Part shown: positions 25,187-60,770 of the stretch, in pieces | How positions within the stretch are numbered: the stretch's first letter is position 1 | Layout: each line of letters starts with the position of its first letter | Assembly (NCBI GenBank): GCA_965207075.1 | Contig: CBDBLO010000002.1 | Coordinates: 2,214-66,213, forward strand | Length of the DNA stretch: 64,000 nucleotides | Source of the DNA: Nitrosopumilus sp. | GTDB lineage: Archaea > Thermoproteota > Nitrososphaeria > Nitrososphaerales > Nitrosopumilaceae | Direction of reading: 5' to 3' | Notes under the pieces: model-generated | Database searches by the model: none | Told to the model about the DNA's origin: nothing | The model's input: the letters and a program-made list of their open reading frames with translations, nothing else | Program-made: the position numbers and the translations under genes

Positions 25187-25269
25187 GCCCACAAACGCGC
25201 ATGCCTGCCGCGCGATCGTGCGCCCTGCGTCATCCGCCTGCGTGTCCGTCTTCCCCGGCCCAGCCGGGT

Positions 25270-30685: not shown

Positions 30686-30847
30686 AACTGGATAAATTTT
30701 TTTTGACAGGCTCGCCGCCGCACGGGTTCGCCCGCCGTGCGTGGGGCACCCGCGGCTCGGGGTCCGCGCCCGGCTGCTGGGGGTGGGGGGAGCGGGTGGA
30801 GGCGCGAACCCATACAGGCCATCATCATCATCAGCACCAACAACGCG
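30686..30847 (+). promoter_or_regulatory. Disrupted promoter/leader of S-layer copy A
   Basis: CTCGC-AACTGGA-TAAATTTTTTTTGACAGGC vs CACGC-TTATAAG-TAAATTTTTTTGACAGGC upstream of copy B; 108-bp insertion between ACAGGC repeats; ATG replaced by GCG (30845). Confidence 0.75.
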
Positions 30848-30887
30848 CAAAAGCGAGACCTACAGAAAATATACTAGCATAACGCTA

Positions 30888-33800: not shown

Positions 33801-36800
33801 CTGATTAACTTGGAAGCGGACAACGGAGAGGCATGGATCCCAGTTGTAACCGGTGCTAATACACCAGGTTTACTACAGATACTGGCTGGCGGCGACATAC
33901 GCGCCACGGTATCCATAGATGACATCAACCTGTCCGGAAACACCGTGTTCAGACTGGTGACTGCTACCAATGGCGCTACATCCAACAACTCGACTGCCAT
34001 AAACATCCCATCCGTATTTACCTCTCTGCCGGTCATCACGGCAGATTCTGACGGCTGGGGTGGCGACAATAACATCGACATAAACGCACTGGGAACCTCC
34101 GGTCTGGCCGATGCCACGACCCTGCAACTGCGGGTGTCGACAGGCGGCGCATTTACGGACGTAGGGGCCACCAGTACCATTGCCGCCGATGCAAATGGCG
34201 CTATCAACCACACTGGATCCTTGACCGACCTATCACTGTCCGGAACATCAGCCACGTTCATACTGCAAGCCACTACCAGTGGTATTATTGTAATGTCAGA
34301 CAACGTGACCGTAAGCATACCTGCGGCACTGACCCTGGCAGACGTGAGCTTTGGTAATGCAGGATGGACGGGTGAAGAAGGCTCTCAAGTACTCAACCTG
34401 TTTGTAACAGGCAGCACCACGCTGACGGTTGGTAACGGGGCATCACTAGAATACTACAACGAAGCCACTGAAACTTGGGTTCCTGTTCCGGTCGACGGCG
34501 ATGGCCCCGCTCTCGTGGGTACAATACCTGACGACGGCGCCATAGCAGATGCGCAGGTAATCCTAGATGATCCAGAGCTGGCGGGCGACACAGTCCAGCT
34601 CAGACTGGTCTCAACTGATGATACAACCACGGCAGCATCGGCACCCATAACAAGGACCATTCCGGCACTGCCGCCATCAAGCAGCAGCGTCGACATGGCA
34701 CCCACGCCGATATCCTTCTCCGCACAGAACGGATTCCCGCCCATAACTAGGGCAGTAATCAACGACATCAGCGAGATACCGGCCGTGCACAACGTGCAGG
34801 CCTCATCACCGGTGGCAATATACACCTGGTCAGATGACGACAAGACCGTAGAGGCGTTCAGCGACAGGCTCAGACTATCCGAGCCTTCCGAGAGGAACAC
34901 CATAACGGGCAACTCGAAGATCGTCATATACGGATGGGAGCCACCCACGTTTGCCGACGGCGTCACAACGCTGTTCAACTGGAACTTTGGTTCCATACTG
35001 AGCGACAGCATCGCGGCCGGCACGATCATAACCGAGATCAGGCTTGCAAACGCAGCCCACACCGAAAGTGTGCTACTGGGCGACGGTGAATCCGGCCTGG
35101 TGGACATCACTGCCATGAAGGACGACATCGAGGCCCTCGGAGATACCGTAGACCTGGTCATCATGATGGACAACACCAACATCGACCACGTGTGCGGCGA
35201 CATTACGTTGGTTGCTGACTTCTTCACGTTCGGACAGAACGACGATGACGGTAGGGTGAACAACGCCATATACCGCATCGAGGTCGAGGAGGCCAGCAGC
35301 AACTCTGCCGACTTTGAGGGCACCGTGGAGTACACCATGCTCAACCAGCTGAACATCGACGATCCGGCCACGTACACGGGCCTGAGGACCATCTCAGACC
35401 AAGTGTCGATCATAGTCCACGAGGACTTTACCGACGAGGACTCCGTGAGGGTCAACTATCTCGACTTGGGCGCCGACGGCGTATCAACCCAGATAGCGAT
35501 CCAGCAGGCGGCCCCGACGCACAGCGCCGTGGTCTCCTTTGACGCGGAGAGCTACAAGGTTGCCGACACCGTTACGATAACGCTGGAGGATGCCGACCTC
35601 AACGTCCAGAACGACGTGATAGACATCTACACGTTCTCATCTGAACTCACGGACTACATCGGAGACGACAAGGCCTACATCCTCGACGTCACATTTGACG
35701 ACGAGCTATGGACCTCCGGAGAATGTGAGGGAGCCGACGGATTTGCATCCACCGGCTTCACGCTGCAGGAGACTGCGGCAGGCTCCGGCGTCTTTACGGG
35801 CGACTTCCAGATACCCGAATACTACTGCCAGTCGAGCACCACCACCATGGTCTCCGTAACCGGCGTGGACATTGAAGTCAACTATCAGGACTTCCGTGAC
35901 GCGTCCGGCGAGGAGATCGAGGTCGGAGCGGGAGCGGCGGTTCGTGCCAACACTGGTACGGTATCGCTTGACCGCACCGTATACCCGGTGCCGTTCGCGG
36001 CAGACGTGTTCGAGCACACCACAGGCACGCTCGGCCAGCACGATCTGACGGTCCACGTCACCATAGACGATCCGGACTTTGACATATCGGCTGCCGGCGA
36101 GGACGTGATATCCAACGCCACCGAGTACCTGACCGTACAGGTCATACGCGGCTCGGCATCCCAGACGATCGACCTTGACGACGCGCAGATCCTCGAGACC
36201 GCGCCCGACAGCGGCGCATTCGAGCTTGACCTGCCACTCGCGTACGACGCCGGTCCGGACGGATCGATACTGCAAGGAGACATCCTGCAGGTCGAGTACC
36301 GCGACCCGACTGACGCGTCAGGCGAGGAGAACACCGTCACAGACTCTGCTACCTTCGACCTGCGCAACGGCGTGCTCCAGTCCGACAAGTCCGTCTACAT
36401 CATCGGCTCAGACATGATCCTGACGCTGATAGAGCCGGACCTTGACCTGGAGAACGACGGCGCCGAGTCCTACACGCTCGACCTGATCGAGTGGGACTCT
36501 GACGCAGCGACGCTCGGCATGGACAACCCAGTGTTCGATCCAGAGCCATCCGAGCTCCGTGAGACTGGAGACTCCACCGGAATATTCCAGGTGATAGTCG
36601 AGATTCCCGCGGAGATCGACGGCGACCGCCTCGAGAGGGGTGAGGAGATCGAGCTCGAGTACGTTGACTGGGGTCCGTCAGGCGCCGACTATGTCGGCGA
36701 CGAGAGTGAGGACGTCGGACTGACGGTATTCACCTCCAACTTTGGCGCGACCATCGAGCTGGACCAGAAGGTGTACACGTGGACCGACAAGGTCTACATC

Positions 36801-37874: not shown

Positions 37875-37909
37875 TATATACACAAAAACACACAGAAAAA
37901 AATTTCCCC

Positions 37910-37928
37910 TTTTTTCTTTTTTTATTTT
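37910..37928 (+). terminator. Archaeal oligo-T terminator of S-layer copy A
   Basis: TTTTTTCTTTTTTTATTTT just downstream of the stop. Confidence 0.75.
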
Positions 37929-38259
37929 GGACTAACAGCGGATGCTGTGACCGTCAGGTTGTAGCATGCGCAAATCCGCGCTATGCTGTATCCAGAGACT
38001 TGGTCGACGAGCAGCAAAAATGGTAATCAAGTACGTGACGTCCCTTGCTGCATGTAGGACGATAACGAAATATGGAATAATTTCCGACCAGCTAACGTGA
38101 AAGATCTACGAGTGCGTCCGACCATGTTAAAGCGGGTTCATCCACCGCGCCGTTCTGCGACGAGTTTTCTTTGCGCGTTTTATTTTCTGCATGTGGGCAA
38201 CCGACGGTTTTTGGGCTGGGCTTGGACATAACCTCTGAAGTCATGGAAGGATTGCACTA

Positions 38260-39364
38260 GAGTGACGATCATTGAAAATTTCGCTTCACACGCAGCGGTA
38301 CAGAAATTTGTAGATGTCAAGCCTGATTGGGCACGTCCTGAAATATTCGGACACAGCATGCGTCAGATCCTCCCGCGTCTCGTAGTGTTCTGAGGTGACA
38401 AGCCTGTACTTTGCATCCTTCCATACGGACTCGACTGCGCTGAGCTTCGGTGTGGCGGTGGGCAGGTACAGGATCTCCACCCCGTCGTGTTCCTTCAGGT
38501 ACTTTTTCACCTCCCTGTGCTTGTGCTGGCTTGCGTTGTCCGCTACGAGCAGGACCCTGCCCCACTTGCGGCGCACCTTCCTGAGATACCGTACGAACGT
38601 CGGGCCGTCGAACTTCTCATACTGCCGCATCAGTCTCGTTCCATCCTCTGCAAGCGTGCCGAACACGACGGTCCGATCCCTCCTGCCGTGCCGGCTGACA
38701 GTCACGGAATCCCCGACGCGCGACCACAGCTTCCTTCCGTTCGTCCCCGTTCTGAGAAATATGGACTCGTCCTGCACCGCGATCGTCAATCCGCGCCTTT
38801 TTGCACCCGATATCGTGCCTGCGGCGTCGGCCTGCCACTGCCTTACCGCGTCGGCGTCGGCAGCCGAGGCGTACAGGGTGGTCGACCTCTTGGACGAGAA
38901 CCCGAGGCGTCGCAGGATCCTGCGCACGCTGCACAGGCTGTACCGGATGTACAGCCTCTCCCGTATCCAGTTCCGCAGCTTTCTCGGGGTGAGCGTGTTC
39001 CTGCCTGCAAGCCTGTCGGCCACCCTCCTGATCTGGCCGTACCTTGCGCGTGAAGCCCTGCCCCTCCCGGGAGCGTCCCGGAGGCCACCGATGCCGTCCT
39101 CGTTGAACCGGGCAACCCACAGTTGCACCGTTCGCTGGTCCACGTCTGCAAAATCAGACGCGGTCCTTGTCGAGTGGCCCTTGAGCACACCCAGGACAGC
39201 CATCATCCTGTTGCGGATCCTGACGTCCCTCTCTGCACGCATGGCCTCCTTCAGCTCCCAGATCTTCTTGCTGTTCTCGATCATGGATGGGGCGGCGATC
39301 CGGCGATCAATAAGCTTTTCTGCGGTTGTCCATCATGAGGCGAAATTTTCAATGAGCGTCACTC
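38260..39364 (-). mobile_element. IS630/Tc1-mariner family IS
   Basis: TIRs GAGTGACGATCATTGAAAATTTCGC / GAGTGACGCTCATTGAAAATTTCGC (1 mismatch); TA on both sides (38258-59, 39365-66) in a CTAG context. Confidence 0.93.
38286..39284 (-). CDS. IS630 transposase (intact, single frame)
   Basis: Two HTH regions; DDE triad QDES / ADNAS / AVESVW. Confidence 0.93.
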   Translation of the reverse strand: MIENSKKIWELKEAMRAERDVRIRNRMMAVLGVLKGHSTRTASDFADVDQRTVQLWVARFNEDGIGGLRDAPGRGRASRARYGQIRRVADRLAGRNTLTPRKLRNWIRERLYIRYSLCSVRRILRRLGFSSKRSTTLYASAADADAVRQWQADAAGTISGAKRRGLTIAVQDESIFLRTGTNGRKLWSRVGDSVTVSRHGRRDRTVVFGTLAEDGTRLMRQYEKFDGPTFVRYLRKVRRKWGRVLLVADNASQHKHREVKKYLKEHDGVEILYLPTATPKLSAVESVWKDAKYRLVTSEHYETREDLTHAVSEYFRTCPIRLDIYKFLYRCV

Positions 39365-39609
39365 TAGTGGACGCTCTGACAGCTTGAATGCGCCGCGGTT
39401 AAATGATGCGTCCATCTACCCATGAGATGATATGGGCAGCCACCCCCGTATTCAACACCGCCGTTATCCGCAATCCGTCGCCGGCCGGATACAACGGCGG
39501 CCGCCATAGCAACATTATGGCCAAGTTTTACGCCCAAACGCCGGCAAATCAGAATAGAGGTGCCATGCTTGTGCAATCATGTGACGGTCACAGCATCCGC
39601 TGTTAGTCC

Positions 39610-39628
39610 AAAATAAAAAAAGAAAAAA
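39610..39628 (-). terminator. Oligo-T terminator of S-layer copy B
   Basis: Reverse complement of the copy A terminator. Confidence 0.75.
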
Positions 39629-39663
39629 GGGGAAATTTTTTTCTGTGTGTTTTTGTGTATATA

Positions 39664-42600
39664 CTAGCTTACGGTGATGTCGGTTGTGACCGGCGGCGAT
39701 AGGGCAGTCGGGTTGTCAACTGACTCCCATACGAACGCGGTTGCCGTGTAGGTTCCCGCCTCGGATGGAATCCATGATGTTGACGGACTCAGTGACTGTC
39801 CTGCCTCCAGCGTTCCGGATATCCAGGAGAGCGCGACCGTGACACCGTTTGCGTCCTGGACCTGTACCAGATAGGCAAAGGCCTGGGAGCGGTCCTGGCC
39901 GTTGGCCAGGTCTGCCACGATCTGCACCTGCTGGTCTGCAGACACCGTGTCTAGGCTGTTGCCGAAGGCATCCACAATCCTAAGGTTGGTTGCGGGCGCC
40001 CTCTCCAGCGGAGGCACGATGGTGCCGATCAGCGTGGTTGCCGTTATGTCGAGCTCGTCTGCTGTCGTGTACGGGTCTGGTAGCGTGTTGTCCTCATACT
40101 CGGCCGTTACAGTGTTGCCCTCTGCGACGCGGAGGCGGTGCCCGGACGACTCGTCGGTTATGGTGAAGAACACCGTGCCTTCGAATATTCCGGTCGCCTC
40201 GTTGGTCTCGGTTACGGTGAGGTCGATTCCGCCGTTGTCGGCGTCTGACCACACGTCAACCACAAAGTTGTTCACTGCCTCCGGGTTCCAGTTCATGTCT
40301 GGGTCGATGACCCTGACCACTCCTGTGCCGGATGCCGGGTACGATGACTCGAGCCACTGCACTTCGCCTATGTTCCACCTGATGAGAGCAGAGCCCACTA
40401 CGGTCTCGTCCTCAGAGTACTCGAATGAGACGGTGATGCCGTCGTCATCGTCAGTCTGGAGGTAGCCGTTGGTGGGTCCGCTGCCGTCTGGGCTGGTGTC
40501 ACGCTGCGGGTTGTCATAACCTGCCTCGGTACCAGTCTCGGTGTCGCCGTCCGCGTTGTGGTCGAATCCGATAAGGATCACCTCACCCGTGAAGATTCCC
40601 GTGTCAGGACCGGTCTCGACAAGCTTGTAGTTGTCGATGTCGGCACTGCGCGTGGATACCTGTATCGGGTCGAGGTTGGAGTCGCCTATCTCGTCGACAA
40701 GTGCGGAGTCGAAGTTGTGGTCTGGCGCCACGATGGTGATGTAGACCTTGTCGGTCCACGTGTACACCTTCTGGTCCAGCTCGATGGTCGCGCCAAAGTT
40801 GGAGGTGAATACCGTCAGTCCGACGTCCTCACTCTCGTCGCCGACATAGTCGGCGCCTGACGGACCCCAGTCAACGTACTCGAGCTCGATCTCCTCACCC
40901 CTCTCGAGGCGGTCGCCGTCGATCTCCGCGGGAATCTCGACTATCACCTGGAATATTCCGGTGGAGTCTCCAGTCTCACGGAGCTCGGATGGCTCTGGAT
41001 CGAACACTGGGTTGTCCATGCCGAGCGTCGCTGCGTCAGAGTCCCACTCGATCAGGTCGAGCGTGTAGGACTCGGCGCCGTCGTTCTCCAGGTCAAGGTC
41101 CGGCTCTATCAGCGTCAGGATCATGTCTGAGCCGATGATGTAGACGGACTTGTCGGACTGGAGCACGCCGTTGCGCAGGTCGAAGGTAGCAGAGTCTGTG
41201 ACGGTGTTCTCCTCGCCTGACGCGTCAGTCGGGTCGCGGTACTCGACCTGCAGGATGTCTCCTTGCAGTATCGATCCGTCCGGACCGGCGTCGTACGCGA
41301 GTGGCAGGTCAAGCTCGAATGCGCCGCTGTCGGGCGCGGTCTCGAGGATCTGCGCGTCGTCAAGGTCGATCGTCTGGGATGCCGAGCCGCGTATGACCTG
41401 TACGGTCAGGTACTCGGTGGCGTTGGATATCACGTCCTCGCCGGCAGCCGATATGTCAAAGTCCGGATCGTCTATGGTGACGTGGACCGTCAGATCGTGC
41501 TGGCCGAGCGTGCCTGTGGTGTGCTCGAACACGTCTGCCGCGAACGGCACCGGGTATACGGTGCGGTCAAGCGATACCGTACCAGTGTTGGCACGAACCG
41601 CCGCTCCCGCTCCGACCTCGATCTCCTCGCCGGACGCGTCACGGAAGTCCTGATAGTTGACTTCAATGTCCACGCCGGTTACGGAGACCATGGTGGTGGT
41701 GCTCGACTGGCAGTAGTATTCGGGTATCTGGAAGTCGCCCGTAAAGACGCCGGAGCCTGCCGCAGTCTCCTGCAGCGTGAAGCCGGTGGATGCAAATCCG
41801 TCGGCTCCCTCACATTCTCCGGAGGTCCATAGCTCGTCGTCAAATGTGACGTCGAGGATGTAGGCCTTGTCGTCTCCGATGTAGTCCGTGAGTTCAGATG
41901 AGAACGTGTAGATGTCTATCACGTCGTTCTGGACGTTGAGGTCGGCATCCTCCAGCGTTATCGTAACGGTGTCGGCAACCTTGTAGCTCTCCGCGTCAAA
42001 GGAGACCACGGCGCTGTGCGTCGGGGCCGCCTGCTGGATCGCTATCTGGGTTGATACGCCGTCGGCGCCCAAGTCGAGATAGTTGACCCTCACGGAGTCC
42101 TCGTCGGTAAAGTCCTCGTGGACTATGATCGACACTTGGTCTGAGATGGTCCTCAGGCCCGTGTACGTGGCCGGATCGTCGATGTTCAGCTGGTTGAGCA
42201 TGGTGTACTCCACGGTGCCCTCAAAGTCGGCAGAGTTGCTGCTGGCCTCCTCGACCTCGATGCGGTATATGGCGTTGTTCACCCTACCGTCATCGTCGTT
42301 CTGTCCGAACGTGAAGAAGTCAGCAACCAACGTAATGTCGCCGCACACGTGGTCGATGTTGGTGTTGTCCATCATGATGACCAGGTCTACGGTATCTCCG
42401 AGGGCCTCGATGTCGTCCTTCATGGCAGTGATGTCCACCAGGCCGGATTCACCGTCGCCCAGTAGCACACTTTCGGTGTGGGCTGCGTTTGCAAGCCTGA
42501 TCTCGGTTATGATCGTGCCGGCCGCGATGCTGTCGCTCAGTATGGAACCAAAGTTCCAGTTGAACAGCGTTGTGACGCCGTCGGCAAACGTGGGTGGCTC

Positions 42601-45600
42601 CCATCCGTATATGACGATCTTCGAGTTGCCCGTTATGGTGTTCCTCTCGGAAGGCTCGGATAGTCTGAGCCTGTCGCTGAACGCCTCTACGGTCTTGTCG
42701 TCATCTGACCAGGTGTATATTGCCACCGGTGATGAGGCCTGCACGTTGTGCACGGCCGGTATCTCGCTGATGTCGTTGATTACTGCCCTGGTTATGGGCG
42801 GGAATCCGTTCTGTGCGGAGAAGGATATCGGCGTCGGTACCATGTCGACGCTGTTGCCAGATGGCAGTGCCGGAACGACCCTTGATAGGGAGTTTGATAC
42901 TGCTATGGCGGGGTCACTACCTGTTTGCAGTCTGAACTGGACTGTGTCGCCCGCCAGTTCTGTATCATCTAGGGTTACCACCGCGTCAGATATGTCACCC
43001 GCTGTGCCGCTTGCAGCAGGGGTAAGAGGGATCCATGTTTCGCCGTTGGTGGATACCGCTAGTGTTGCGCCTGTACTCAATTTGCTGTTGCCTGTTACAA
43101 ACAGGTTGAGGCTATGATCAGTATCAGTTGTGTTAGTCCATCCTGCATTGCCGAAACTCACGTCTGCCAGGGTCAGTGCCGCAGGTATGCTTACGGTCCT
43201 GTTGCCTGACTCTGCCACATTGCCGCCGACAGTGACTGCCAGTTTGAACGTGGTCGTTATTCCGGACATTGCGATGTCGTTCAGGGTTGCATTGTAGTCG
43301 AAATTGCCGCCTGTAAGGGCGGTGTCAAAGGCATTACCTACGTCAACAAACTCATTAGCTTTCACCGCCTGCAATTGCAGAGACGTACCCGAAGCACCCA
43401 AGCCAGAGGTTCCCTTTACGTTTATCGTAAGGGCGCCAGCATCCGTCCAGTCACCAATCGGCGTGACGGTCGGCAGGGATGTGAGTATGTGCGGGATGCG
43501 CACGGCTGTCGAGTTGTTTGACGCGGCATCGTTGGCATATTCATTGGATTGGTCAGTGCCAGTCACCAGCCTAAACACGGTATCTCCGGACAGAGATATG
43601 TCCGTTATGGATACCGTGGCGCGTATGTCGCCGCCAGACAGTATCCGCAGTCCCGTAGTTGTGCCATCTACAACCGTCGTCCATTGATCGTCGATGTCTG
43701 CCTGCAGGTCAATCTCGGTATCCTCTGCAATGCCGTCGCTGAGTCCTGTCACCCTTACCTCAAAGTTCCCGTCGTTCCACTGGCCCGCGTTGCTGCCGGT
43801 TGTGACAACTTGCAGGTTGGTCAGTATCGGGGGTATGTCTCTGGATAGGGGATCTGATGTGAAAGTCGTCGCCGCACCTCCGGAGTTTTCCACCAGTACA
43901 AACTGTACGGTAGTGCCGGATAATGCGAGGTCGTCGGCGCCAAGTGTTACCGTGCCGTTTACCACGCCGTCATCGAAACCAGAAACCGAAACCGTACCTA
44001 CGGCTGCTCCAGTATCAACTAGATGGACAGTGAATGCGCCACCGCCGTCGGTATTCGGTACGATTGCTTGCTTGCTACCTGTTATGTTCAGTATGAGCGA
44101 ACCCGTGGTTGCACCTGCGATCCATTCATTTACGATGATGTCGTCTAGGGTAAGCAGTACGGGCATGGGCGCAGTCCAACTGTTTGAAGCTACAGGTACG
44201 CCAGCGTAGGTGGTTGTCAGGACAAACTGGGTTGGGCCTTGTATGGCAGTATTCGTTATGTTGATACGCGCTTGGTTGTTGACAAACTGTACAGGTTGGT
44301 TAAGCGTGGCTGTATCAAGCTCGCCGTCCTCATCAAGTACTGACAAGGCAACGGCGCCAGACACGGATTCCGTACCTGCGACCCGTAGCGTAATGTAATC
44401 ATCACCAGTGTCAGGATTAATCCATTCATCTACGGGAACCACGTTGGTAAGGGATATCGCCGGCGGTATGTTTGCCGTGTCGCTGTTACTAATTGAGCCG
44501 TCAGAAGTCGTTGCCGTAAACGTGTGGGTGCCGGACACCGTAACGTTGGCAAAGGGTATCATCCCTGATATCACGTTGCTGGTTACTGCAACGTCATACT
44601 CGCCAAAGTTGGGAATGGTGTCTGACGTCAGTGTAACGGTGCCGTCGGCGACGTTGACCGTGGTTCCGCTTATGTCCAGCTCGATAACTCCGTCATCCCA
44701 TTGGCCTGGGTCGACGGTCAGTGATATCGTAGCCTGTCTGGCATTTACGGTTACGGTCCTAGTCTCGGTTGCGGAGTTTCCTGCATTGTCCTCACAGGCG
44801 TACGTTATGGTGTAGGTGCCCGGTGCAGTGTTGGTGACGGTGCCAGTCGTGGTCACGGTCAGTGGCCCGTCCCTGGCATCCGTACAGCTGGCTCCCGCGT
44901 CGGTCCAGGTGTCACCGGCAGTTATGGTGTCGGTGCCCGGGTTCACGGTAATCACGGGCATGTCAGTATCGGGTCTGTCAGGATCGTCGACGGTTACCAC
45001 TCTGGTAACGGAAGCCGAGTTTCCTGCAGTGTCGGTACAAGTGTACATCAGCGTGTACGTGCCTGCCACGTTAGTGTTGGGTGCAGCCGACGTCTGGGAG
45101 ACCGTTAGGTTGCCGTCCCTCGCGTCAGTACACGTGGCGCCCCGCTCGGTATAGGTGTCGCCCACGTTCAGCCTGATCTCCGAGGGTCCGGTGAGTCTGA
45201 TCACCGGATCTGTGGTGTCAGGCGGAAGCGGATCTGCCAAGTCAAACCATACCACGTCGCCTGTGGCCGACGCCAGCGTGACCGGCGAGCCGATCCTGAT
45301 GGATGGCACCAGCAGGCTGTACGGGTTGGCCACCTCGAGGTTGTCCTCTGCGAGTGGGTTGACGTTGGCGTCCTCGTCGGTAAGCGTTATGGGTATGCGT
45401 TCGCCAGAGTTCCAGGTGTCGTCAGGCACGTCGAGCGCGAGCTCGGCAAAGAAGTGTCCTATGACCCCGGACTTTGCGTCCGGAGAGCTGTAGTCCACCT
45501 CGAAGCTGTTGCCCCTCAGCGCGTCTTTCTTTACGACGATGTTGGACCTCTGGTCCTCGGCCCAGTTGATGAATACGTTGTTGTTGGAGCCGTCCTCCAC

Positions 45601-46680
45601 GAATCCGATGGCAAAGTTGCCGGGCGTGAACACGTCGTCCGCGCCGGCGACCAGGCCCACGTTGGGCACGCAGGCGCCATAGTCATCGACCACGAGGTAG
45701 TCGCGGCTCGCGTTATCTTCCTCCTGTATTCCAAAGTCCTTTGTCACCTGGCAGTCGATCACGTCGTTGCCCTGTGCGCCGCGGTTTATGCTTACGGTCT
45801 CGTCGATGCCGGCCTCCGAGCCAACTGCGTTGATCTCAGAGCTCGGGTTTCCGTCCTCGTCAAACACGTTGTAGTACGCCCCACCGTTCTGGGTGTCGAA
45901 CACCCACGTGTCCTCGTCTGTCGGGTCTATGTTCAGTGCATAGTCCATCAGCTCGATGTGCACGTGAGCGCCCTGCGGGTACTTGGTGCGGTCTAGCGAG
46001 TGGGATTCTGACGGGTCGTCAAACGTCAGGGTGACGGTCTGGCGATCGCCGCCCTTGTTGTAGACGATGTCGACGTCAGTCAGTGACGTAAAGTCGTATA
46101 CCTGGATGAAGGGCCAAAGGTTCGCGTTGGACAGTCCAAGCTGTCCCAGCGAGTTGCCGTCATAGTTGGTCAGGTCGCGCGGCTCCCTTATCAGGGGGTG
46201 GCCGTTGGCGCTGGTGTTGGAATCATTACAGTTGGAGCCGGGCGGCAGGTATACGCCGTTGCCGTCGCTGAGCGGAAGACCTGTCACCGCTGACGCGGCA
46301 GTCTCGCTACAGTATACACCGTAGGGGAGGCTTTCAGCTGCGCCCGCCAGCGCGTCCACCTCGGCAAAGTACGCCGTCCAGTAGCCGTTGGCAGTCTGCA
46401 GCATCCGGAGGTCCGCTCCGTTTACGGTAACTTCGGGCTCTGCTTCGCCCTCGTCCGTGTCTCCTATTGAGTCATCTCTTATGATTACTTCGATTATGTT
46501 TCCTTCGGCAAACATGTTGTCGGGGTCCTGTCCCTCTGCCGATACGTACAGGTTCGGGTTCGACGTGCTCACTTCTGCAAACACGGGGTCCGCGCCCGGT
46601 ACGGCAAAGGTCAGCCCCCCGGCGACCATGATTGCCATTAGCGTTATGCTAGTATATTTTCTGTAGATTTCGTTTTGCAT
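39664..46680 (-). CDS. Large thaumarchaeal-type S-layer protein, copy B (probably the expressed copy)
   Basis: 2338 aa; complete signal peptide MQNEIYRKYTS...; near-identical to copy A outside the central segment. Confidence 0.92.
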   Translation of the reverse strand: MQNEIYRKYTSITLMAIMVAGGLTFAVPGADPVFAEVSTSNPNLYVSAEGQDPDNMFAEGNIIEVIIRDDSIGDTDEGEAEPEVTVNGADLRMLQTANGYWTAYFAEVDALAGAAESLPYGVYCSETAASAVTGLPLSDGNGVYLPPGSNCNDSNTSANGHPLIREPRDLTNYDGNSLGQLGLSNANLWPFIQVYDFTSLTDVDIVYNKGGDRQTVTLTFDDPSESHSLDRTKYPQGAHVHIELMDYALNIDPTDEDTWVFDTQNGGAYYNVFDEDGNPSSEINAVGSEAGIDETVSINRGAQGNDVIDCQVTKDFGIQEEDNASRDYLVVDDYGACVPNVGLVAGADDVFTPGNFAIGFVEDGSNNNVFINWAEDQRSNIVVKKDALRGNSFEVDYSSPDAKSGVIGHFFAELALDVPDDTWNSGERIPITLTDEDANVNPLAEDNLEVANPYSLLVPSIRIGSPVTLASATGDVVWFDLADPLPPDTTDPVIRLTGPSEIRLNVGDTYTERGATCTDARDGNLTVSQTSAAPNTNVAGTYTLMYTCTDTAGNSASVTRVVTVDDPDRPDTDMPVITVNPGTDTITAGDTWTDAGASCTDARDGPLTVTTTGTVTNTAPGTYTITYACEDNAGNSATETRTVTVNARQATISLTVDPGQWDDGVIELDISGTTVNVADGTVTLTSDTIPNFGEYDVAVTSNVISGMIPFANVTVSGTHTFTATTSDGSISNSDTANIPPAISLTNVVPVDEWINPDTGDDYITLRVAGTESVSGAVALSVLDEDGELDTATLNQPVQFVNNQARINITNTAIQGPTQFVLTTTYAGVPVASNSWTAPMPVLLTLDDIIVNEWIAGATTGSLILNITGSKQAIVPNTDGGGAFTVHLVDTGAAVGTVSVSGFDDGVVNGTVTLGADDLALSGTTVQFVLVENSGGAATTFTSDPLSRDIPPILTNLQVVTTGSNAGQWNDGNFEVRVTGLSDGIAEDTEIDLQADIDDQWTTVVDGTTTGLRILSGGDIRATVSITDISLSGDTVFRLVTGTDQSNEYANDAASNNSTAVRIPHILTSLPTVTPIGDWTDAGALTINVKGTSGLGASGTSLQLQAVKANEFVDVGNAFDTALTGGNFDYNATLNDIAMSGITTTFKLAVTVGGNVAESGNRTVSIPAALTLADVSFGNAGWTNTTDTDHSLNLFVTGNSKLSTGATLAVSTNGETWIPLTPAASGTAGDISDAVVTLDDTELAGDTVQFRLQTGSDPAIAVSNSLSRVVPALPSGNSVDMVPTPISFSAQNGFPPITRAVINDISEIPAVHNVQASSPVAIYTWSDDDKTVEAFSDRLRLSEPSERNTITGNSKIVIYGWEPPTFADGVTTLFNWNFGSILSDSIAAGTIITEIRLANAAHTESVLLGDGESGLVDITAMKDDIEALGDTVDLVIMMDNTNIDHVCGDITLVADFFTFGQNDDDGRVNNAIYRIEVEEASSNSADFEGTVEYTMLNQLNIDDPATYTGLRTISDQVSIIVHEDFTDEDSVRVNYLDLGADGVSTQIAIQQAAPTHSAVVSFDAESYKVADTVTITLEDADLNVQNDVIDIYTFSSELTDYIGDDKAYILDVTFDDELWTSGECEGADGFASTGFTLQETAAGSGVFTGDFQIPEYYCQSSTTTMVSVTGVDIEVNYQDFRDASGEEIEVGAGAAVRANTGTVSLDRTVYPVPFAADVFEHTTGTLGQHDLTVHVTIDDPDFDISAAGEDVISNATEYLTVQVIRGSASQTIDLDDAQILETAPDSGAFELDLPLAYDAGPDGSILQGDILQVEYRDPTDASGEENTVTDSATFDLRNGVLQSDKSVYIIGSDMILTLIEPDLDLENDGAESYTLDLIEWDSDAATLGMDNPVFDPEPSELRETGDSTGIFQVIVEIPAEIDGDRLERGEEIELEYVDWGPSGADYVGDESEDVGLTVFTSNFGATIELDQKVYTWTDKVYITIVAPDHNFDSALVDEIGDSNLDPIQVSTRSADIDNYKLVETGPDTGIFTGEVILIGFDHNADGDTETGTEAGYDNPQRDTSPDGSGPTNGYLQTDDDDGITVSFEYSEDETVVGSALIRWNIGEVQWLESSYPASGTGVVRVIDPDMNWNPEAVNNFVVDVWSDADNGGIDLTVTETNEATGIFEGTVFFTITDESSGHRLRVAEGNTVTAEYEDNTLPDPYTTADELDITATTLIGTIVPPLERAPATNLRIVDAFGNSLDTVSADQQVQIVADLANGQDRSQAFAYLVQVQDANGVTVALSWISGTLEAGQSLSPSTSWIPSEAGTYTATAFVWESVDNPTALSPPVTTDITVS

Positions 46681-54383: not shown

Positions 54384-55286
54384 TTGACCGCATGCCGGCG
54401 CGGCCACATGTGGCGCACCCCGACTGGAACGCAGAAAAAGCCGTCTGATACGCACGCCGAGAACATCGCAAGGAACCCGGACGACTACCGCGTGCTGGAG
54501 AGGGTCCCCCTGCGTTATGACGACGTCCCGATAAGGTTTGCAGAACCTCGCGATGACGACACCACCGTCGTTATCGTGGACTTTGAGACCACGGGGCTCA
54601 GCCACGACGCGGATAAGGTCATAGAGATCGGCATGGTGCGGTGCCGTTACGACCCGGAGGGAAGGCTCGCCGGAATAGACGAGGCACTCGACATGTTCGA
54701 GGATCCCGGCGAGCCCATATCCGACAACATAACCGAGCTGACCGGGATAACGGACGACATGGTGCGGGGCAAGCGCATCGACACGGATAAAGTGCGCGAC
54801 ATGATCCGCGGCGATCCCGTAATGGCGGCCCACAACGCAAAGTTCGACCGCCCGTTCTTTGACCGCATCGTGCCAAACGACCACAGGTGGAAGTGCACCA
54901 TGGAGGAGATACCGTGGTGGGATCTGGGGCACGGCACGCGGGGGCTGGGCGAGCTCCTGATGCGCGAGGGGTGGTTCTTTGACCACCACAGGGCGCACGC
55001 GGACTGCCTTGCGACCGCGTGGCTGCTGAGCGTGGTGCCGGGCAGCCTGCACCTCATGCTGGAGCCGTCCGTAAGGGTGGTCGCCCACGGCAACAGCTTT
55101 GACGTCAAGGACGAGCTAAAAGGCCGGGGATACAAGTGGAACCAGACGGAGAGGTACTGGTGGACCAGCACCAAGGATGGCGCGGACGAGGAGCTGGAGT
55201 ACCTGCGCAACCTGTACCCGGACGGCTACAAGGCCAAGGCGACGGAGATCGACCCGCGCACGGCGTACAGGCTGCCAGGTGGCTGA
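54384..55286 (+). CDS. DnaQ/epsilon-like DEDDh 3'-5' exonuclease
   Basis: IVDFETTGL, AAHNAKFDRPF and HHRAHADC motifs; start uncertain (TTG 54384 or ATG 54408). Confidence 0.88.
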   Translation: MTACRRGHMWRTPTGTQKKPSDTHAENIARNPDDYRVLERVPLRYDDVPIRFAEPRDDDTTVVIVDFETTGLSHDADKVIEIGMVRCRYDPEGRLAGIDEALDMFEDPGEPISDNITELTGITDDMVRGKRIDTDKVRDMIRGDPVMAAHNAKFDRPFFDRIVPNDHRWKCTMEEIPWWDLGHGTRGLGELLMREGWFFDHHRAHADCLATAWLLSVVPGSLHLMLEPSVRVVAHGNSFDVKDELKGRGYKWNQTERYWWTSTKDGADEELEYLRNLYPDGYKAKATEIDPRTAYRLPGG

Positions 55287-56740
55287 CCCCGGGGACGTCC
55301 GGCGCACCCGTGGCCCGGGGATCACGCGCCAGCCCTGTCCCTTAATTCGCGCAACTTTGCAGCGGTATCGGCATTGTCGGCCTCGTGCTTGGATATATGA
55401 TCCCTGTACGCGGAAATTTCGGCCCCAATATCGTCTATCTCCGACGCGTTTGCGGAGTTCGCCTCCCTGTGCAGAGGGGCGTTACATAATCCCAGAAGGC
55501 GCTCTATCTCATGGTCATTGTGCCTCTGGCATTATTCCAACGCGCGTATGTCGCTGTCAATCCCTCGAATCATTTGACCGCTCCTCGTATGATTCCGCAA
55601 GGCGCCTTGCCATCTCGGCCAGTTCGGCGTGTCCCATCTTTTCTGCAAGGTCCCCGACCTTGCGGCACCTGTTGATTTCAAGGGCATAGTTTGCCATGCC
55701 GTATGTCGCGTCGTTCGGCATAAAAATATTGCCGCAGGCAGTCGGTCGCGTACAGGCTGGCCATGCAGAGGGTCAAGAAGTGGTCCGAGGTGGGGTGGGG
55801 GACCACGAGCCGGAAAAGAGGGGCGGCAGGAAAAGGACGCGGGGCCAGAAGATCATTGGGGTGTACGCGGTCTTTGCCACCGACCTTGCCGCGGCGACCG
55901 TGCGGGGCCGCAGGCCGGCAGGCCGTCATGCGCGGCCAGAGAACAGCTCGCGCACCAGGAACACGTGCTCTAGAAGGGCACTGCCCAGCATCTTTTTGCC
56001 AAAGCCGGCCGAGTCCGGGATGTCCCGCACGTATGACGCGGCCCTGCGTCCGGGATCGGGCACGCCGCCTCCACGTATGCTTTTTACCTGCTCCAGTATG
56101 TCATGCAACATGCGCGCCGCCTCGGACTTTGTAACCTCCCCGTCCAGACACCTGCGCACATGCACGGAGTATGCGCACAGCAACAGCAGCACGTCCGTGA
56201 CGTGCTCGGTCTTTCTGTACCTGTGCTTTTTTGCCAGGTACGTCCCCTGAAAGTTGTTGTAGCGCTTGGCCTGCCTGTCAGTGACACTGACTGCGGACTT
56301 TAGGTTCAGGAGCCCGAAAACGGAGCCGGTGACGCTTGCAATAATGTCAGGTATGCCATACCTCGGCTCGCGTGCAAAATGCTCCGTCTTGAAACCAGTC
56401 ATGACCTCAAACGCGCCAAGTGACACTTCAAGATCCCGCCTTGTGGAGGATTTTAACAAAAGACCTAGGTCGTAGACCTGCTTTGCGATCTCAGTCTGCT
56501 TAGAGGGCCGGAGCCCGATCGTCCCAAGCGCCAGGGTCGTAAGCTTGTCGCCCAGCAGGGAGCCCTTCGAGAGTATGCGCATGTCATGGGCGGTCTCGAA
56601 GCCAAAGAGCTCGAACCCGGATCTCTTCAGCTCCGAGTCCGGGTGCACGTCCACATCGCAGAAAAAGTCCACCTTGACATACCTTCTCCCGCCCAGGCAG
56701 GAGTCGTAGTATACCCGGTACGAGACCAGGTTGTCAAGCG

Positions 56741-58217
56741 GGGGTTGGTACGGAATTCAAAAAATGTTCTAAATGGGGGTTGGTGCCAAATTCATTTTCC
56801 ACCACTCGCAAGCGGCGGGCGTGCAGAAAGATATAAACGGTAATTTACCGTACAAATACTATGTTTACATACCGAAAGTACCGCGTGCGCGCGTTGCTGA
56901 CCGCGGAGCAGAGGGGGGAGATCCAGCGCCTGCGCGACGGGCAGCGCCAGGCGTACAACTGGGCCGTCTCAAGGCTGAGGGAGGGGTGGTCCCGGAATGA
57001 CGAGTACGGGCTCTACGGGGAGCTCACCGCGCAGAGGAGCAGGCACGACTGGCTCCGCGTCATCCCGGTTGTCATACAGCGCGCCGGAATCCGCGACGCG
57101 TTCACGGCCTCCAAGCTGTCGGCGCGGTACGGCCGCGGCGAGCCAAAGTACCGCTCCCGGAAGCGCGACCCGGGCGCGCTCAGGTGCCCGTCGGCTCCCC
57201 GCGTGGTGGATCCGTGCCGCATCAGACTCCCCGGCTTTGGCGCGGTACGCGCGCGCATCCCGGAGGAGATCATGGAATACGAGCCGCGCGCATATGAGTT
57301 CGTCCCGCACAAGGGCGGCTATCTGCTGTACGTGTCGTGCCGCGTCGCCGTGCAGGGGCAGCGGCCGCCGTCCGGCGGGCCGGGCGCCTCGCGCGTGACG
57401 GTCAAGGGCATCGACCGCGGTACGGTCGAGCCAACCGTCGTCGTCACGCTGAACCCGGACGGCAGCACGAGGAGCAAGGACTCGTATGACACGGCGGCGC
57501 CCTTCCGCGACGACAGGGCCGGGCATCAGAGGAGGCAGTCCAGAATGAGCAGGAGGATGAACAGGCGCTCCGGGAGATACAGGCGGCTCCGCGCCAAGAC
57601 GAGGGGGCAGCTGCGGAGAGTACGAAACCGCCGGACATACGCGGAGTGCGTGGCCGCAAAGCACGTCGTGGACGACTACAGCCCCCACACCATAGTGCTC
57701 GAGAGCCTGAACCTGTCCGGGATGACCCGCCGCGGCGGCCCTTGCAAAAAGGGCATGAACCGCGAGATGCGCTTTGTCCGACACCATGCAGTCGAGCAGC
57801 GCATCCGCAACCGCGCAGAGATGCGCGGGATCCGCGTAACCGCGACCAGCCCGCATTACACCTCGCAGACGTGCGCGCGCTGCGGCCGCGTGGACGCGAA
57901 ATCCAGGGTCACGCGCGACATGTTCAAGTGCACAGGGTGCCATTACATTCAGCACGCGGACGTCAATGCCGCGTTGAACATCGGAAGGCAGGGACTGCCA
58001 ACGCCTTCTGACGAGGACACGCCGGAGGCAGTCCCCGACGGAGGTTGGAACCCCTTCGTGAGACGCGAACTGGACGTGCGCCTCAATTGTTTTGTCGAGG
58101 GCCCCGCGAGGGGGCGCGAGAACCAAGTGCCTGCACGTCACCTTGCCCACCTGGGCATGGAGAAAGAACGTCAAAGGACCAATGGGGCCCGCAAGGGCTG
58201 AATTTGGTACCAACCCC
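56741..58217 (+). mobile_element. TnpB-only element 2 with 19-bp TIRs and a 9-bp TSD
   Basis: TSD TGTCAAGCG at 56732-56740 and 58218-58226; TIRs GGGGTTGGTACGGAATTCA / GGGGTTGGTACCAAATTCA (17/19). Confidence 0.95.
56861..58201 (+). CDS. tnpB: TnpB RNA-guided endonuclease (close copy of 17513..18853)
   Basis: GIDRG / VLESL / ADVNAA RuvC triad; CARC/CTGC zinc finger. Confidence 0.93.
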   Translation: MFTYRKYRVRALLTAEQRGEIQRLRDGQRQAYNWAVSRLREGWSRNDEYGLYGELTAQRSRHDWLRVIPVVIQRAGIRDAFTASKLSARYGRGEPKYRSRKRDPGALRCPSAPRVVDPCRIRLPGFGAVRARIPEEIMEYEPRAYEFVPHKGGYLLYVSCRVAVQGQRPPSGGPGASRVTVKGIDRGTVEPTVVVTLNPDGSTRSKDSYDTAAPFRDDRAGHQRRQSRMSRRMNRRSGRYRRLRAKTRGQLRRVRNRRTYAECVAAKHVVDDYSPHTIVLESLNLSGMTRRGGPCKKGMNREMRFVRHHAVEQRIRNRAEMRGIRVTATSPHYTSQTCARCGRVDAKSRVTRDMFKCTGCHYIQHADVNAALNIGRQGLPTPSDEDTPEAVPDGGWNPFVRRELDVRLNCFVEGPARGRENQVPARHLAHLGMEKERQRTNGARKG

Positions 58218-58543
58218 TGTCAAGCGGATACGGATTCCGTGGAACGTACTCCTCGCACAGGATTCCGGGCGGGGCGCCGCTTATGCCGCCCATGACGCCC
58301 CTTGTCTCGTCGACGGTCAGCCCTGTCAGAAGGTCAACGTCCACGCTCAGCCTCCTGGCCGCGCCGTCGGCCGTGTGGAACGGCATGCACATGCCCCCCC
58401 CCCTCGTGACGCAGTCCGCCCTCCGCGCTATGCGCGCGTGCACCTCAAAATCCATGATGAATTTTTCAATGGCCAGCTTGTCCCTGAACCCGTACCGTTC
58501 CGATATGGACGAGATGCTGTCCTCCTCAAGCAGCGCGGAATAC

Positions 58544-60472
58544 TCAGGACTGTCCAGCGCGTCCGCCTCCCAGGTATCCGTCGACGCCGTCCAGCAGTTT
58601 TCTGCGCCTTGCAAGCGACCGGAGTCTCTTTTCCGACGCAAGGCCGCTCCGGAGCAGCTCCGACAGTATCCCGTCCAGCTCGTCGCCGTACATGGTCAGC
58701 GTTCCCCTGCGCACCTCGGAGTAGAGGTCGAGCCAGGCTTTTTCCGGGGGGGCCCACGTGGTCGCCGGCCGCTCCGCGTACTCCCGTATTATTATGAGCC
58801 TGCTGCCGACGCCGGAGATTCCAAGGACGGCATCCACCTCGGCCGGCCTTGGCTCCAGCAGCGCGACGAACCTCCCCCCCGCGTGGTCCTGTACGGCCTC
58901 CAGTACCTGCTGCCCCGCCCCGGGCACCGTGTGGATGACGTAGACCATCTTGCCATACGCGTTGTGCAGAAAGGGGGCCAGCGTGCTCAGGCCGGTAAAC
59001 TGAAAGCCGTGTCTTATGGCGTCGGCCAGGTGGCCGTGCAGGTCCACGAGCTCGCCTGCGGGGGAGTAGGCGGGCGTCAGCACCGCGCCGCCGCCGCCGC
59101 CATTTCTCGGTCCGGTTCTCCTTGGAGCCGGGTCGGCCACGAGCCTGCCTACGAGCTCGCCCCACCTCCTGTTTCTGTCGCGGACAAAGTCGGCATACCT
59201 TGCCGGGTTGCCGGCCACAAGCTCCGACTCTACGCGTACCAGGCTCAGGAGCAACAGCGGGTTCTTGAAGATCATAAACATCTCGCTTGACCTGTTGACT
59301 GTGATCTTGAGGCCGTCGTCGGCAAAGTCCAGGCCGTATATGCCGCCGTCCTTGGCGTCCTCGAACGCGACGTCCATCCTCCCCGCCTCGCCCCGGACGG
59401 CAAAGCGGCCCGTCCTGCGCAGCAGTGACCTGGCGTTTGCGGCGCTCATCCTTGCGTCCAAGAGGGGGGTACTCCCCGCGTCATCCGCGAATATGCGGCG
59501 TATGTCAAGCGAGTCCTGTCTCCTTGACGGCGAGTCACGGATGCATTTCAGCACGGCCGGGTCCTTCCCAAAGCCCTTGACGGCCTCTTCGTATTCCAGC
59601 GAGTCCTCCAAGAACCCCGTCTTGTGAAAGTTTACCGGAACGTGGTCGATGGATATCTCCCCGACCACTCTGGCCATCTCCGGATGGCTCCTTATGCCGA
59701 ACTTGTCAAAGGCCCTTATGAGGCGCCCTCTCCGGTAGAGGTGCATCCCGTAGTCGCCCTTGATCGACCGCCTCCTCAAGAGTCCGACCCAGCCGGCTAT
59801 CCGGCCGCCGCTTGGGAGCCTTACGTCGACGTCCTGCCGCGTGCCTTCCTCGAGTTCCGGTTCGGCGGGCCTGCAGTCCTTGGAGTTGACCGTTATGCGG
59901 GCCCTGCCGTCCCTGAGGTACGGACCGTACCTTATTGCAAACCGTTTCTTAAAGTTCGAGAGCTGGTTGGAATACAGCGGAACCTTGAGCTTGCTGATCG
60001 TTATCTTGGTGCCGTGCCAGTCGCCGGACTTGTCGGACTCCTCGATCTCAAAGTTGGTCCAGTCCCTTGACCCGTCCCCCAGCCACTGATCCTCGTCATA
60101 TCTGGCCACAAGTTTTGTCCCCGGGCCCGGCCTGGACGTAACTATCGAGAATGCCTTGCCGAGGCTGGAGCAGGCCCCCTTCATTCCCATGCCGAACCTG
60201 CCCAGACTGCCGTCCTTTTTTGTCTCCCTTGCGACGGTCAGCGCGTCCCGCAGCTGGGGCAGGTTCATCCCCAAGCAGTCGTCTGTCACCGTAACCTGCC
60301 TCCTGCCAAAGTCCAGCTGCAGGCGGATGCGGCACGTCTCGCCCTCGATTCTTGCGTCAATCGAGTTGTCCACCAGCTCTGCGACCGCCTGTTCGGTCCT
60401 GTATCCGACGAGGCCCAACTTCTTGATCAGGCTCTTGTCAGGGGTGATGTCTACGGGAATCGTCCGCGCCAT
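58544..60472 (-). CDS. GHKL (MORC/MutL-like) ATPase fused to a C-terminal AbiEi-like domain
   Basis: AVAELVDNSID, VTDDCLGM, GRFGMGMK, HGTKITI GHKL boxes; C-terminal PEKAWLDLY resembles AbiEi antitoxin C-termini. Confidence 0.8.
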   Translation of the reverse strand: MARTIPVDITPDKSLIKKLGLVGYRTEQAVAELVDNSIDARIEGETCRIRLQLDFGRRQVTVTDDCLGMNLPQLRDALTVARETKKDGSLGRFGMGMKGACSSLGKAFSIVTSRPGPGTKLVARYDEDQWLGDGSRDWTNFEIEESDKSGDWHGTKITISKLKVPLYSNQLSNFKKRFAIRYGPYLRDGRARITVNSKDCRPAEPELEEGTRQDVDVRLPSGGRIAGWVGLLRRRSIKGDYGMHLYRRGRLIRAFDKFGIRSHPEMARVVGEISIDHVPVNFHKTGFLEDSLEYEEAVKGFGKDPAVLKCIRDSPSRRQDSLDIRRIFADDAGSTPLLDARMSAANARSLLRRTGRFAVRGEAGRMDVAFEDAKDGGIYGLDFADDGLKITVNRSSEMFMIFKNPLLLLSLVRVESELVAGNPARYADFVRDRNRRWGELVGRLVADPAPRRTGPRNGGGGGAVLTPAYSPAGELVDLHGHLADAIRHGFQFTGLSTLAPFLHNAYGKMVYVIHTVPGAGQQVLEAVQDHAGGRFVALLEPRPAEVDAVLGISGVGSRLIIIREYAERPATTWAPPEKAWLDLYSEVRRGTLTMYGDELDGILSELLRSGLASEKRLRSLARRRKLLDGVDGYLGGGRAGQS

Positions 60473-60770
60473 GATTACGAGCAATATGTGAGAATATTAT
60501 ATATTTTCTCTGTTTTCGCTCGTAGAATCATAATGTTAAATGCAATCTTATTATGAGAATAACGCCGAAATTCTCGTAAATTGCTCGTTAAGCCGGACGC
60601 GGCTGCCGCCTTTTTTGGGCTACAGGCAGGCAGGCAGGCAGAGGCGGCGGCATTCACAGGCAGCCGGACGCGCGCAGAACCGCCAAGTTGAGCTGGACGC
60701 CGTCCGGGGCGCGGCCCCGCATGATCCGCGGCCGTCCCGCCGCGCCCCGCCGCCGTCGGGAACCTCCGCG

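Follow-up and report, generated by a model that had tools for sequence, protein, structure and literature searches.

A TnpB-only element with IS5-like ends and a 9-bp target-site duplication in Nitrosopumilus: a probable transposase-less cassette

Background

Cas12 and the eukaryotic Fanzors descend from TnpB, whose known role is to keep IS605 and IS607 elements from being lost after scarless excision. Fanzor1 nucleases are reportedly carried by eukaryotic DDE transposons, a finding that is said to go back to Bao and Jurka in 2013 and to Saito et al. in 2023. Mobile insertion cassettes (MICs, for example MIC231 of IS231) and miniature inverted-repeat transposable elements (MITEs) are non-autonomous derivatives of DDE elements. 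The target-site duplication is 9 bp long in the IS903-like group of the IS5 family and 2-3 bp long in IS630, ISL2 and IS1031. Elements of the IS200/IS605 and IS607 types have no inverted ends and make no target duplications, and the DDE families that have been tied to TnpB in a review are ISL2, IS630 and IS1031 (PMC13565253). Altae-Tran et al. (PNAS, 2023) described six DDE-associated branches of TnpB (DDE-1 to DDE-6), all of them with inverted terminal repeats, in which no more than 250 bp separate the 3' end of tnpB from the end of the transposon, together with solo TnpBs which are flanked by the same ends and "mobilized by transposases in trans" (PMC10691335). The present text concerns a stretch of 64,000 nucleotides from Nitrosopumilus sp. 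(contig CBDBLO010000002.1), called the window in what follows, and within it the element w1 (56741-58217, 1477 bp): a tnpB gene between inverted terminal repeats, flanked by a 9-bp duplication, which is probably a transposase-less cassette with IS5-like ends.

Like the elements of Altae-Tran et al., w1 has inverted repeats around tnpB and less than 250 bp between the 3' end of the gene and the end of the element; like their solo TnpBs, it has ends nearly identical (up to 18 of 19 positions) to those of elements which do encode a DDE transposase. It departs from their DDE branches in that a transposase in cis was not seen in any member of its archaeal clade, and from the IS630, ISL2 and IS1031 cases in having IS5-like ends with 9-bp duplications and sister elements with IS1595 ends. 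With the IS1341-type solo tnpB of the IS200/IS605 group and with IS607 it shares a TnpB that stands alone and, by prediction, an omegaRNA which overlaps with the 3' part of the gene and whose guide presumably comes from the flank. Unlike IS200/IS605 elements (the IS1341 group included), w1 has 19-bp inverted repeats at its exact boundaries and a 9-bp duplication; unlike IS607, it has inverted ends and a duplication, and no serine-recombinase TnpA. That elements of these two types lack such ends and duplications had also been stated in a first reading of the window, made from its letters (the sequence-only reading below), in agreement with the review.

w1 is related to MICs and MITEs by having the ends of an insertion sequence but no transposase, by a duplication as long as that of the parent and by the existence of gene-less MITEs with the same ends. 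What distinguishes it from MICs is its passenger, a mobile-element nuclease with a predicted guide RNA that takes its 3' end from the end of the insertion sequence. The likeness to Fanzor1 lies in a nuclease of the TnpB family being the cargo of transposons with inverted repeats and target duplications, which belong to several unrelated DDE superfamilies and are often non-autonomous; w1 differs by being prokaryotic (thaumarchaeal) and much smaller, and by having none of the eukaryotic protein extensions. TnpBs that ride on DDE transposons or stand alone between the same ends had already been described (Altae-Tran et al. 2023, PMC10691335), and the general picture published in 2023 is left unchanged by w1. 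It is a new and unusually well-documented example, this time a thaumarchaeal one, for which IS5-like ends, 9-bp duplications and empty sites are all at hand. A possible new twist is that ends have been swapped between DDE families and that the 3' end of the omegaRNA is built from the repeat.

Boundaries of the element and its empty sites

The sequence-only reading had bounded w1 by 19-bp terminal inverted repeats matching at 17 of 19 positions and by a perfect 9-bp target-site duplication. Both descriptions hold when the sequence is read again and searched for repeats: the 9-mer TGTCAAGCG stands on both sides of the element (it occurs three times in the window, against 0.56 occurrences expected), and the outer repeats are as described. 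What had been missed is a third copy of the end repeat, inside the left one (Table 1). This inner copy is found in w2, a second copy of the element, too; it was not found in the IS5-like insertion sequences that we examined (see the next section).

When w1 and one 9-mer (56741-58226) are removed in silico, one obtains a continuous open reading frame of 409 amino acids on the minus strand, the in-frame gene which had been claimed for this excision. It has a single Pfam match, to AbiEii (residues 82-258), which crosses the junction, and a search with the restored protein found an intact AbiEii orthologue (P0348) that is 95% identical. Moreover, the AbiEii gene is uninterrupted in four related assemblies (L171-L174) whose flanks are 95-97% identical to the window. 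There, the two flanks of the window meet on exactly one TGTCAAGCG, as ...GACCAGGT TGTCAAGCG GGTACGG...; the empty allele of L172 reads ...GACCAGGT followed directly by TGTCAAGCGGGTACGG.

A search of the window with w1 by BLAST found two further copies, w2 and w3. The 9-bp duplication of w2 is GGCCGAAGA (17277-17285 and 18870-18878). w2 has GGGGTTGGTACCAACTTCA as its right end and a degenerate outer repeat, GGGTCTGATACGGAATTCA, on the left. In the locus L119, which comes from a 2.098-Mb contig and is about 92% identical to the window, the w2 site is empty and consists of one 9-mer, GGCCCAAGA; the same w2 insertion is present in L123, from another sample. The sequence-only reading had staked itself on two things, namely that empty alleles in relatives would reduce to one copy of the duplication and that other copies of the element would have duplications as well. 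Since the four empty sites hold exactly one TGTCAAGCG each, it survives on the first count; on the second, both a 9-bp duplication and an empty site are found for w2 as well. The observation of a TnpB element bounded by inverted repeats and flanked by a target-site duplication is thus confirmed.

One could also imagine that w1 is a domesticated or immobile TnpB (for example a TldR-like regulator) between decayed repeats, its duplication being a relic. Most TnpB clusters are immobile (PMC10691335), w1 and w2 differ by 3%, and the left repeat of w2 is degenerate, all of which would suit this explanation. We nevertheless hold it to be quite unlikely: among genomes which are 92-97% identical, insertions and empty sites are polymorphic for three different elements, the 9-bp duplications are perfect, the catalytic residues of the protein are intact, and five members of the clade lie within about 72 kb.

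Transposon family of the ends

An end of the w1 type can be written as GGGGTTGGTAC(C/G)(A/G)AATTCA. We scanned a collection of genome contigs with the pattern GGGGTTGGTRCNNAMTTCA, which is degenerate: about 106 of the 118 listed matches are single chance matches. Among the matches listed there are 12 archaeal loci with inverted pairs of ends. In Nitrosopumilaceae, GGGGTTGGTGCG(A/T)AATTCA bounds insertion sequences of 1153-1201 bp (L060, L093 and L049), which encode a protein of 317-332 amino acids with the Pfam domain PF01609 (DDE_Tnp_1) and whose ends agree with that of w1 at up to 18 of 19 positions. These are autonomous elements with matching ends, such as the sequence-only reading had proposed to look for. 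In Woesearchaeota, the same 19-bp ends bound MITEs of 120-250 bp. Exact 9-bp duplications are found at L033, L049, L060 and L115b, so that the length of the duplication is equal in cassettes (w1 and w2) and in autonomous elements.

Since both its ends and the length of its duplication match those of IS5-like insertion sequences, we assign w1 to IS5-like ends. The earlier claim that the ends are of the DDE type is borne out in the same way, by the same ends and 9-bp duplications on insertion sequences with DDE_Tnp_1. The candidate partner resembles the IS5 family and its IS903-like group in being a PF01609 DDE_Tnp_1 protein, in having IS5_2 as its best model and in making 9-bp duplications; the w1-type ends themselves we take to be unrelated to those of IS903. 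This family of IS5-like transposases is abundant (more than 130 clusters). One of its members, P0107, is encoded on the same 2.317-Mb contig of a close relative as the empty AbiEii site of L172; the P0107 element has a GGGGTTGGTG... end, its right end being GGGGTTGGTGTAGAATTAC. A scan of viral sequences with the type-A end gave single matches only.

The only DDE gene of the window encodes a transposase of the IS630 family (Table 1). We rejected it as a partner: its 34-bp ends are unrelated, and the IS630 family makes TA duplications (PMC13565253).

Two observations concern the IS5-like elements themselves. L093 contains, at 5570-6783, a second DDE_Tnp_1-like insertion sequence, which is 27% identical and has ends GGTGTGTCCTAG... 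and a duplication of about 10 bp (CCCTGAGCGC); hence, the IS5-like superfamily is diverse in Nitrosopumilaceae. In L114 (70-3140), a gene of about 340 amino acids lies within an IS5-like insertion sequence and interrupts it; from its translated reading frame, this gene resembles an IS110-type transposase. The 15 nucleotides which flank the element on one side are the reverse complement of the 15 on the other, and there is no direct duplication.

TnpB and the predicted omegaRNA

The cargo is an intact TnpB, as had been said of it from the sequence. It scores 144.6 bits with the NCBIfam model NF040570 (guided_TnpB, cut-off 100) and matches PF07282 (65 bits) and PF12323 of Pfam; the NCBIfam scores for IS607_TnpB and IS200_TnpB are weaker (69.6 and 53.2 bits). 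The RuvC triad (D185, E281 and D367) and the zinc-finger cysteines (C338, C341, C357 and C360) do not vary among 19 aligned sequences of the clade, the motifs having been assigned by inspection (GIDRG, IVLESL and HADVNAA for the triad, CxxC...CxxC for the zinc finger). The ratio of nonsynonymous to synonymous rates (dN/dS) of tnpB between w1 and w2 is about 0.38; the value for w3 and L119 was discarded as invalid, the codon register being broken by indels. The closest solved structures are those of Cas12f and TnpB proteins, at low similarity; the protein is not a Fanzor by sequence, and its context is archaeal. The position of the putative promoter element (Table 1) would imply an mRNA of tnpB that is nearly leaderless.

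As judged by sequence similarity, the clade of this TnpB is small and isolated: it consists of about 30 clusters at 48-95% identity, of which the named ones are from Thaumarchaeota or Nitrosopumilaceae, and just 9 representatives with E <= 1e-30 were found among 1.84 billion. A scan of metagenomes with the TnpB alignment gave 3 loci. The organisation is TnpB-only at 10 of the 10 clade loci examined and in an outgroup at 37% identity, and no transposase in cis was found at any clade member examined. Inverted ends are recognisable at all the clade loci examined except L124 and two partial loci, L121 and L122, where the right end alone is seen; short duplications are discernible where the insertion is young.

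Over the last 190 nucleotides or so, the nucleotide sequence is conserved even between elements with proteins that are just 55-60% identical. For 10 elements, RNAalifold predicts 39 pairs, 12 of which show compensatory changes. On this consensus structure, 91.8% of the cells are paired, against 40-48% in controls where the pairing partners were slid, and there are 12 pairs in which both sides have changed, against 0-4 in the same controls. Directly before the right repeat there is a hairpin with a GNRA cap (58185-58198), which is found in type A and type C ends. The stems of this terminal hairpin vary between elements (GCCC-GCAA-GGGC, TGACC-GACA-GGTCA, GGCC-GGCA-GGCC and GGCC-GGGA-GGTC), mostly by one-sided changes through G-U pairs, and one outer pair is counted as compensatory by RNAalifold; the hairpin itself thus appears to have slight support from covariation. 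In 9 of the 10 elements, the last 5-6 nucleotides are complementary to one upstream hairpin loop (the pairings are GGAAT:ATTCC, GGAAC:GTTCC and GGTTGG:CCAACC).

Two results count against this structure. The region of w1, taken alone, folds no better than its shuffles (z = -0.59), so that it is covariation and position which speak for an omegaRNA. As for the pairing of tip and loop, 4-5% of trials with random 9-mers also result in pairing at this site, and for shuffles of the type-A tip which preserve its composition the figure is 33%; the pseudoknot is for that reason only suggestive, especially for type A. No match to the region was found in Rfam. We regard the region 58025-58217 as omegaRNA-like and as the predicted omegaRNA of w1.

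The stop codon of tnpB (TGA, 58199-58201) falls within the right inverted repeat and the RNA structure extends up to it, which leaves no room for a separate right end of the IS605 or IS607 type. This bears on the explanation that w1 arose by chance nesting, a solo tnpB element of the IS200/IS605 or IS607 type having inserted into a DDE-type MITE with which it now travels. MITEs with these ends do exist, and the weak matches to IS607_TnpB and IS200_TnpB could be read in the same direction. Besides the stop codon and the abutting RNA structure, however, one has to consider that just 120 bp or so separate the left repeat from the ATG and that they are filled by the inner repeat and the promoter, that no separate left-end or right-end hairpins and no remnants of a TnpA were seen, and that the same tight architecture recurs in every member of the clade despite the different end types. 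Chance nesting is thus very unlikely.

Between w1 and w2, the differences within tnpB (56861-58198 compared with 17513-18850) are uneven: 27 of the 35 nucleotide differences are in the first 620 nucleotides, and the half which encodes RuvC and the zinc finger is nearly identical, as is the omegaRNA region. This could reflect either stronger constraint or gene conversion.

Mobilisation in trans and the proposed role of TnpB

The absence of a matching transposase from the window had been pointed out by the sequence-only reading, and it stands: tblastn found no homologue of the IS5-like transposase, and the sole DDE gene is the unrelated IS630 one. Since there is no such transposase in the window, w1 is a cassette without a transposase of its own, for which mobilisation in trans is most likely. 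The sequence-only reading had interpreted it as a TnpB captured by a non-autonomous DDE-type element that is mobilised in trans, and this interpretation is supported. We think it quite probable, from the arrangement of the sequence, that w1 is a "mobile insertion cassette" in which IS5-like DDE ends enclose a promoter, an intact tnpB and an omegaRNA, and which moves by means of a transposase supplied in trans.

Several facts speak against this explanation. The DDE protein reaches only 62 bits with IS5_2, its best NCBIfam model, for a cut-off of 140, so that the assignment to the IS5 family is loose. The candidate partner in the nearest genome (L127) has an end which matches at only 13 of 19 positions, and an IS5-like transposase is absent not only from the 64 kb of the window but also from about 45 kb of related loci. 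In addition, the left flank ends in CAGGT at w1 and in GATGT at w2, and two type-A insertion sites are too few for a transposon-adjacent motif (TAM) to be derived from the flanks. Finally, excision by a DDE transposase already leaves a double-strand break, and the benefit of TnpB is therefore less obvious than for IS605 (PMC13565253).

The mechanism that we propose is the following. A DDE_Tnp_1 transposase encoded elsewhere would bind the 19-bp GGGGTTGGT... ends and cut the cassette out, and a cut staggered by 9 bp at the time of insertion would give rise to the 9-bp duplication. The omegaRNA would be a transcript of the 3' part of tnpB which continues across the right inverted repeat and into the flank; its guide would then consist first of the duplicated 9-mer and then of the host DNA downstream of it (at w1, TGTCAAGCGGATACGG...). 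Such a complex of TnpB and omegaRNA would recognise the uninterrupted, empty allele and neither junction of the occupied site: only the empty allele would offer a full match to the guide, because the left junction shares 9 nucleotides with it and the right junction has the tip of the repeat at the TAM position. By cutting the empty allele, TnpB would favour the retention of the cassette or its copying by homologous repair, a role in retention or homing like the one shown for the TnpB of IS605 and IS607.

That TnpB is itself an autonomous transposase, a nuclease of the RuvC/RNase H fold which would recognise the ends and make the duplication, possibly with host factors, is barely conceivable: it would agree with the failure to find a partner transposase in the window or in the flanking loci, with a clade that is TnpB-only throughout and whose ends are kept over deep divergence (37% identity) and with the presence of at least four end types inside this one small clade, but matching ends and duplication lengths are found on DDE insertion sequences and on gene-less MITEs without TnpB, TnpB is an established RNA-guided nuclease which is dispensable for transposition (PMC13565253), and the conserved omegaRNA-like structure argues against such a function.

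A cassette mobilised in trans, as we propose for w1, bears on the question of what reason there would be for TnpB to be carried by a cut-and-paste DDE transposon, whose excision leaves a break anyway, and on how the guide is defined when the target duplication adjoins the end of the element. The locus is a compact natural example, having two young copies, empty alleles which are the exact presumptive targets, a conserved predicted omegaRNA that extends into the inverted repeat and sisters with the ends of a second DDE family, and both mobilisation in trans and the targeting of the empty allele become directly testable there. As regards the association of Fanzors with DDE transposons, the locus also contributes data from archaea to what forms its prokaryotic background.

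Ends of a second DDE family in sister elements

The ends of w3 (GGGAATTATATACATTAGTTC, 19 of 21 positions matching) are of the IS1595 type and unlike those of w1 and w2. Over 19 nucleotides, the type-B ends of w3 and its relatives are exactly those of an insertion sequence of 1.6-1.75 kb in six contigs of IMG/VR, which encodes an IS1595-family transposase of 305 amino acids (PF12762 and PF12760). An IS1595-type insertion sequence at L156 has an 8-bp duplication, and in Nitrosopumilaceae we saw, at one locus, only an IS1595 transposase with 41% identity. The nearest outgroup TnpB, P0032 (37% identical, on a TARA contig), belongs to a TnpB-only element with type-B ends and an 8-bp duplication, TAAATTTT. 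The likeness to IS1595 thus consists of a second candidate partner with PF12762 and PF12760 and of a duplication of 8 bp.

At w3 itself we recognised no target-site duplication; its TnpB is 99.1% identical to P0017. L119 has a type-B element orthologous to w3 at another site, where it is flanked by CCCTGACGG and TTCTGACGG, and the corresponding site is empty in the window (Table 1). The locus L125, which shares the final 1.9 kb of the window (99% identical), carries two more TnpB-only elements with inverted ends just past position 64000 (1013-2519 and 3937-5417 of L125); they have end types D and B' and lie on either side of an ATPase gene. The source genome therefore holds at least five members of the clade within about 72 kb.

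There are at least four end types within this one small TnpB clade. In a rough neighbour-joining tree without support values, type B is basal and types A, C and D are in the derived part. Given the sister elements with IS1595 ends, one lineage of TnpB and omegaRNA appears, from these comparisons, to be equipped with ends from two DDE families that are unrelated to each other. It is tentatively, and with rather more doubt than confidence, that we suggest a history for this lineage: it may have persisted only as transposase-less cassettes whose ends were swapped from IS1595-like (ancestral) to IS5-like (derived), the 3' end of the omegaRNA being re-fitted each time by the pairing of tip and loop and the guide being aimed at the allele as it was before insertion. 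If this were true, the lineage would be a prokaryotic counterpart of the association of Fanzor1 with many transposon families, and a natural system in which to ask what use TnpB is to cut-and-paste transposons. We found no literature which links TnpB to IS1595 ends or to Nitrosopumilus.

Viral sequences were also scanned with the type-C end, which gave 96 single chance matches with no homologues of TnpB or of DDE transposases. Among the loci L128-L155, 22 IMG/VR contigs (GC content about 0.3), many of which come from metagenome 3300045988 and are 80-215 kb long, contain the exact 19-mer GGGAATCATATACATTAGA in a single copy each. This 19-mer is probably a segment of a conserved viral gene and not a transposon end.

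Other features of the window

Table 1. Coordinates of w1, of its copies and of other features in the window
Feature	Position	Strand	Description
Left copy of the 9-bp target-site duplication	56732-56740	.	TGTCAAGCG; read from the sequence; single copy at the empty sites of L171-L174
Left (outer) terminal inverted repeat of w1	56741-56759	+	GGGGTTGGTACGGAATTCA; 17/19 to the right arm (repeat finding)
Inner, subterminal copy of the end repeat	56776-56794	+	GGGGTTGGTGCCAAATTCA; 35 bp inward of the outer repeat; 18/19 to the right arm
Putative archaeal TATA-like promoter element	56827-56837	+	AAAGATATAAA; about 25 bp upstream of the ATG; conserved in w2
tnpB of w1	56861-58201	+	446 amino acids, intact; NCBIfam guided_TnpB, Pfam PF07282 and PF12323
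OmegaRNA-like conserved structured region	58025-58217	+	Overlaps the 3' end of tnpB and runs to the tip of the element
Right terminal inverted repeat of w1	58199-58217	-	Reverse complement GGGGTTGGTACCAAATTCA; 17/19 to the left end
Right copy of the 9-bp target-site duplication	58218-58226	.	TGTCAAGCG; read from the sequence; single copy at the empty sites
Host AbiEii-family nucleotidyltransferase gene, split by w1	55926-58641	-	C-terminal part 55926-56740, N-terminal part 58218-58641
w2, with its duplications	17277-18878	+	Element 17286-18869; 97% identical to w1; tnpB 17513-18853, intact, 446 amino acids
w3, same TnpB clade, diverged	27293-28778	-	tnpB 27324-28676, 450 amino acids, 56% identical
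Empty target site for the type-B element of L119	20497-20505	.	Window compared with L119; 7-9-bp duplication
IS630-family element	38255-39369	.	Transposase 38286-39284, minus strand; 34-bp inverted ends CACTAGAGTGACGATCATTGAAAATTTCGCTTCA; DDE_3 and HTH domains

Relative to w1, w2 has about 100 extra bp (17366-17462) in its 5' untranslated region, between the inner end repeat and the promoter; L123 shares them. Next to w3 there is a gene of 551 amino acids with weak matches to tyrosine integrases (28977-30632, minus strand), and a partial extra copy of the repeat, CGTCTTATGGGATAT, lies upstream of the left end of w3; the region 27293-30632 may be rearranged or integrated.

The insertion sites are in neighbourhoods of defence-like or accessory genes (54384-60484 and 21555-26784). 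Near w1, the AbiEii toxin gene stands beside a gene for a MORC-like protein with HATPase_c_3 (58544-60484); the accessory neighbourhoods also hold an RNase_T exonuclease, a Fic protein (21555-22439) and an AAA_14/DUF4143 ATPase (25270-26784). The IS630 element occupies the centre of a large inverted duplication (30741-46680) of two giant genes for Ig-like surface proteins, one on the plus strand (30741-37874) and the other on the minus strand (39664-46680).

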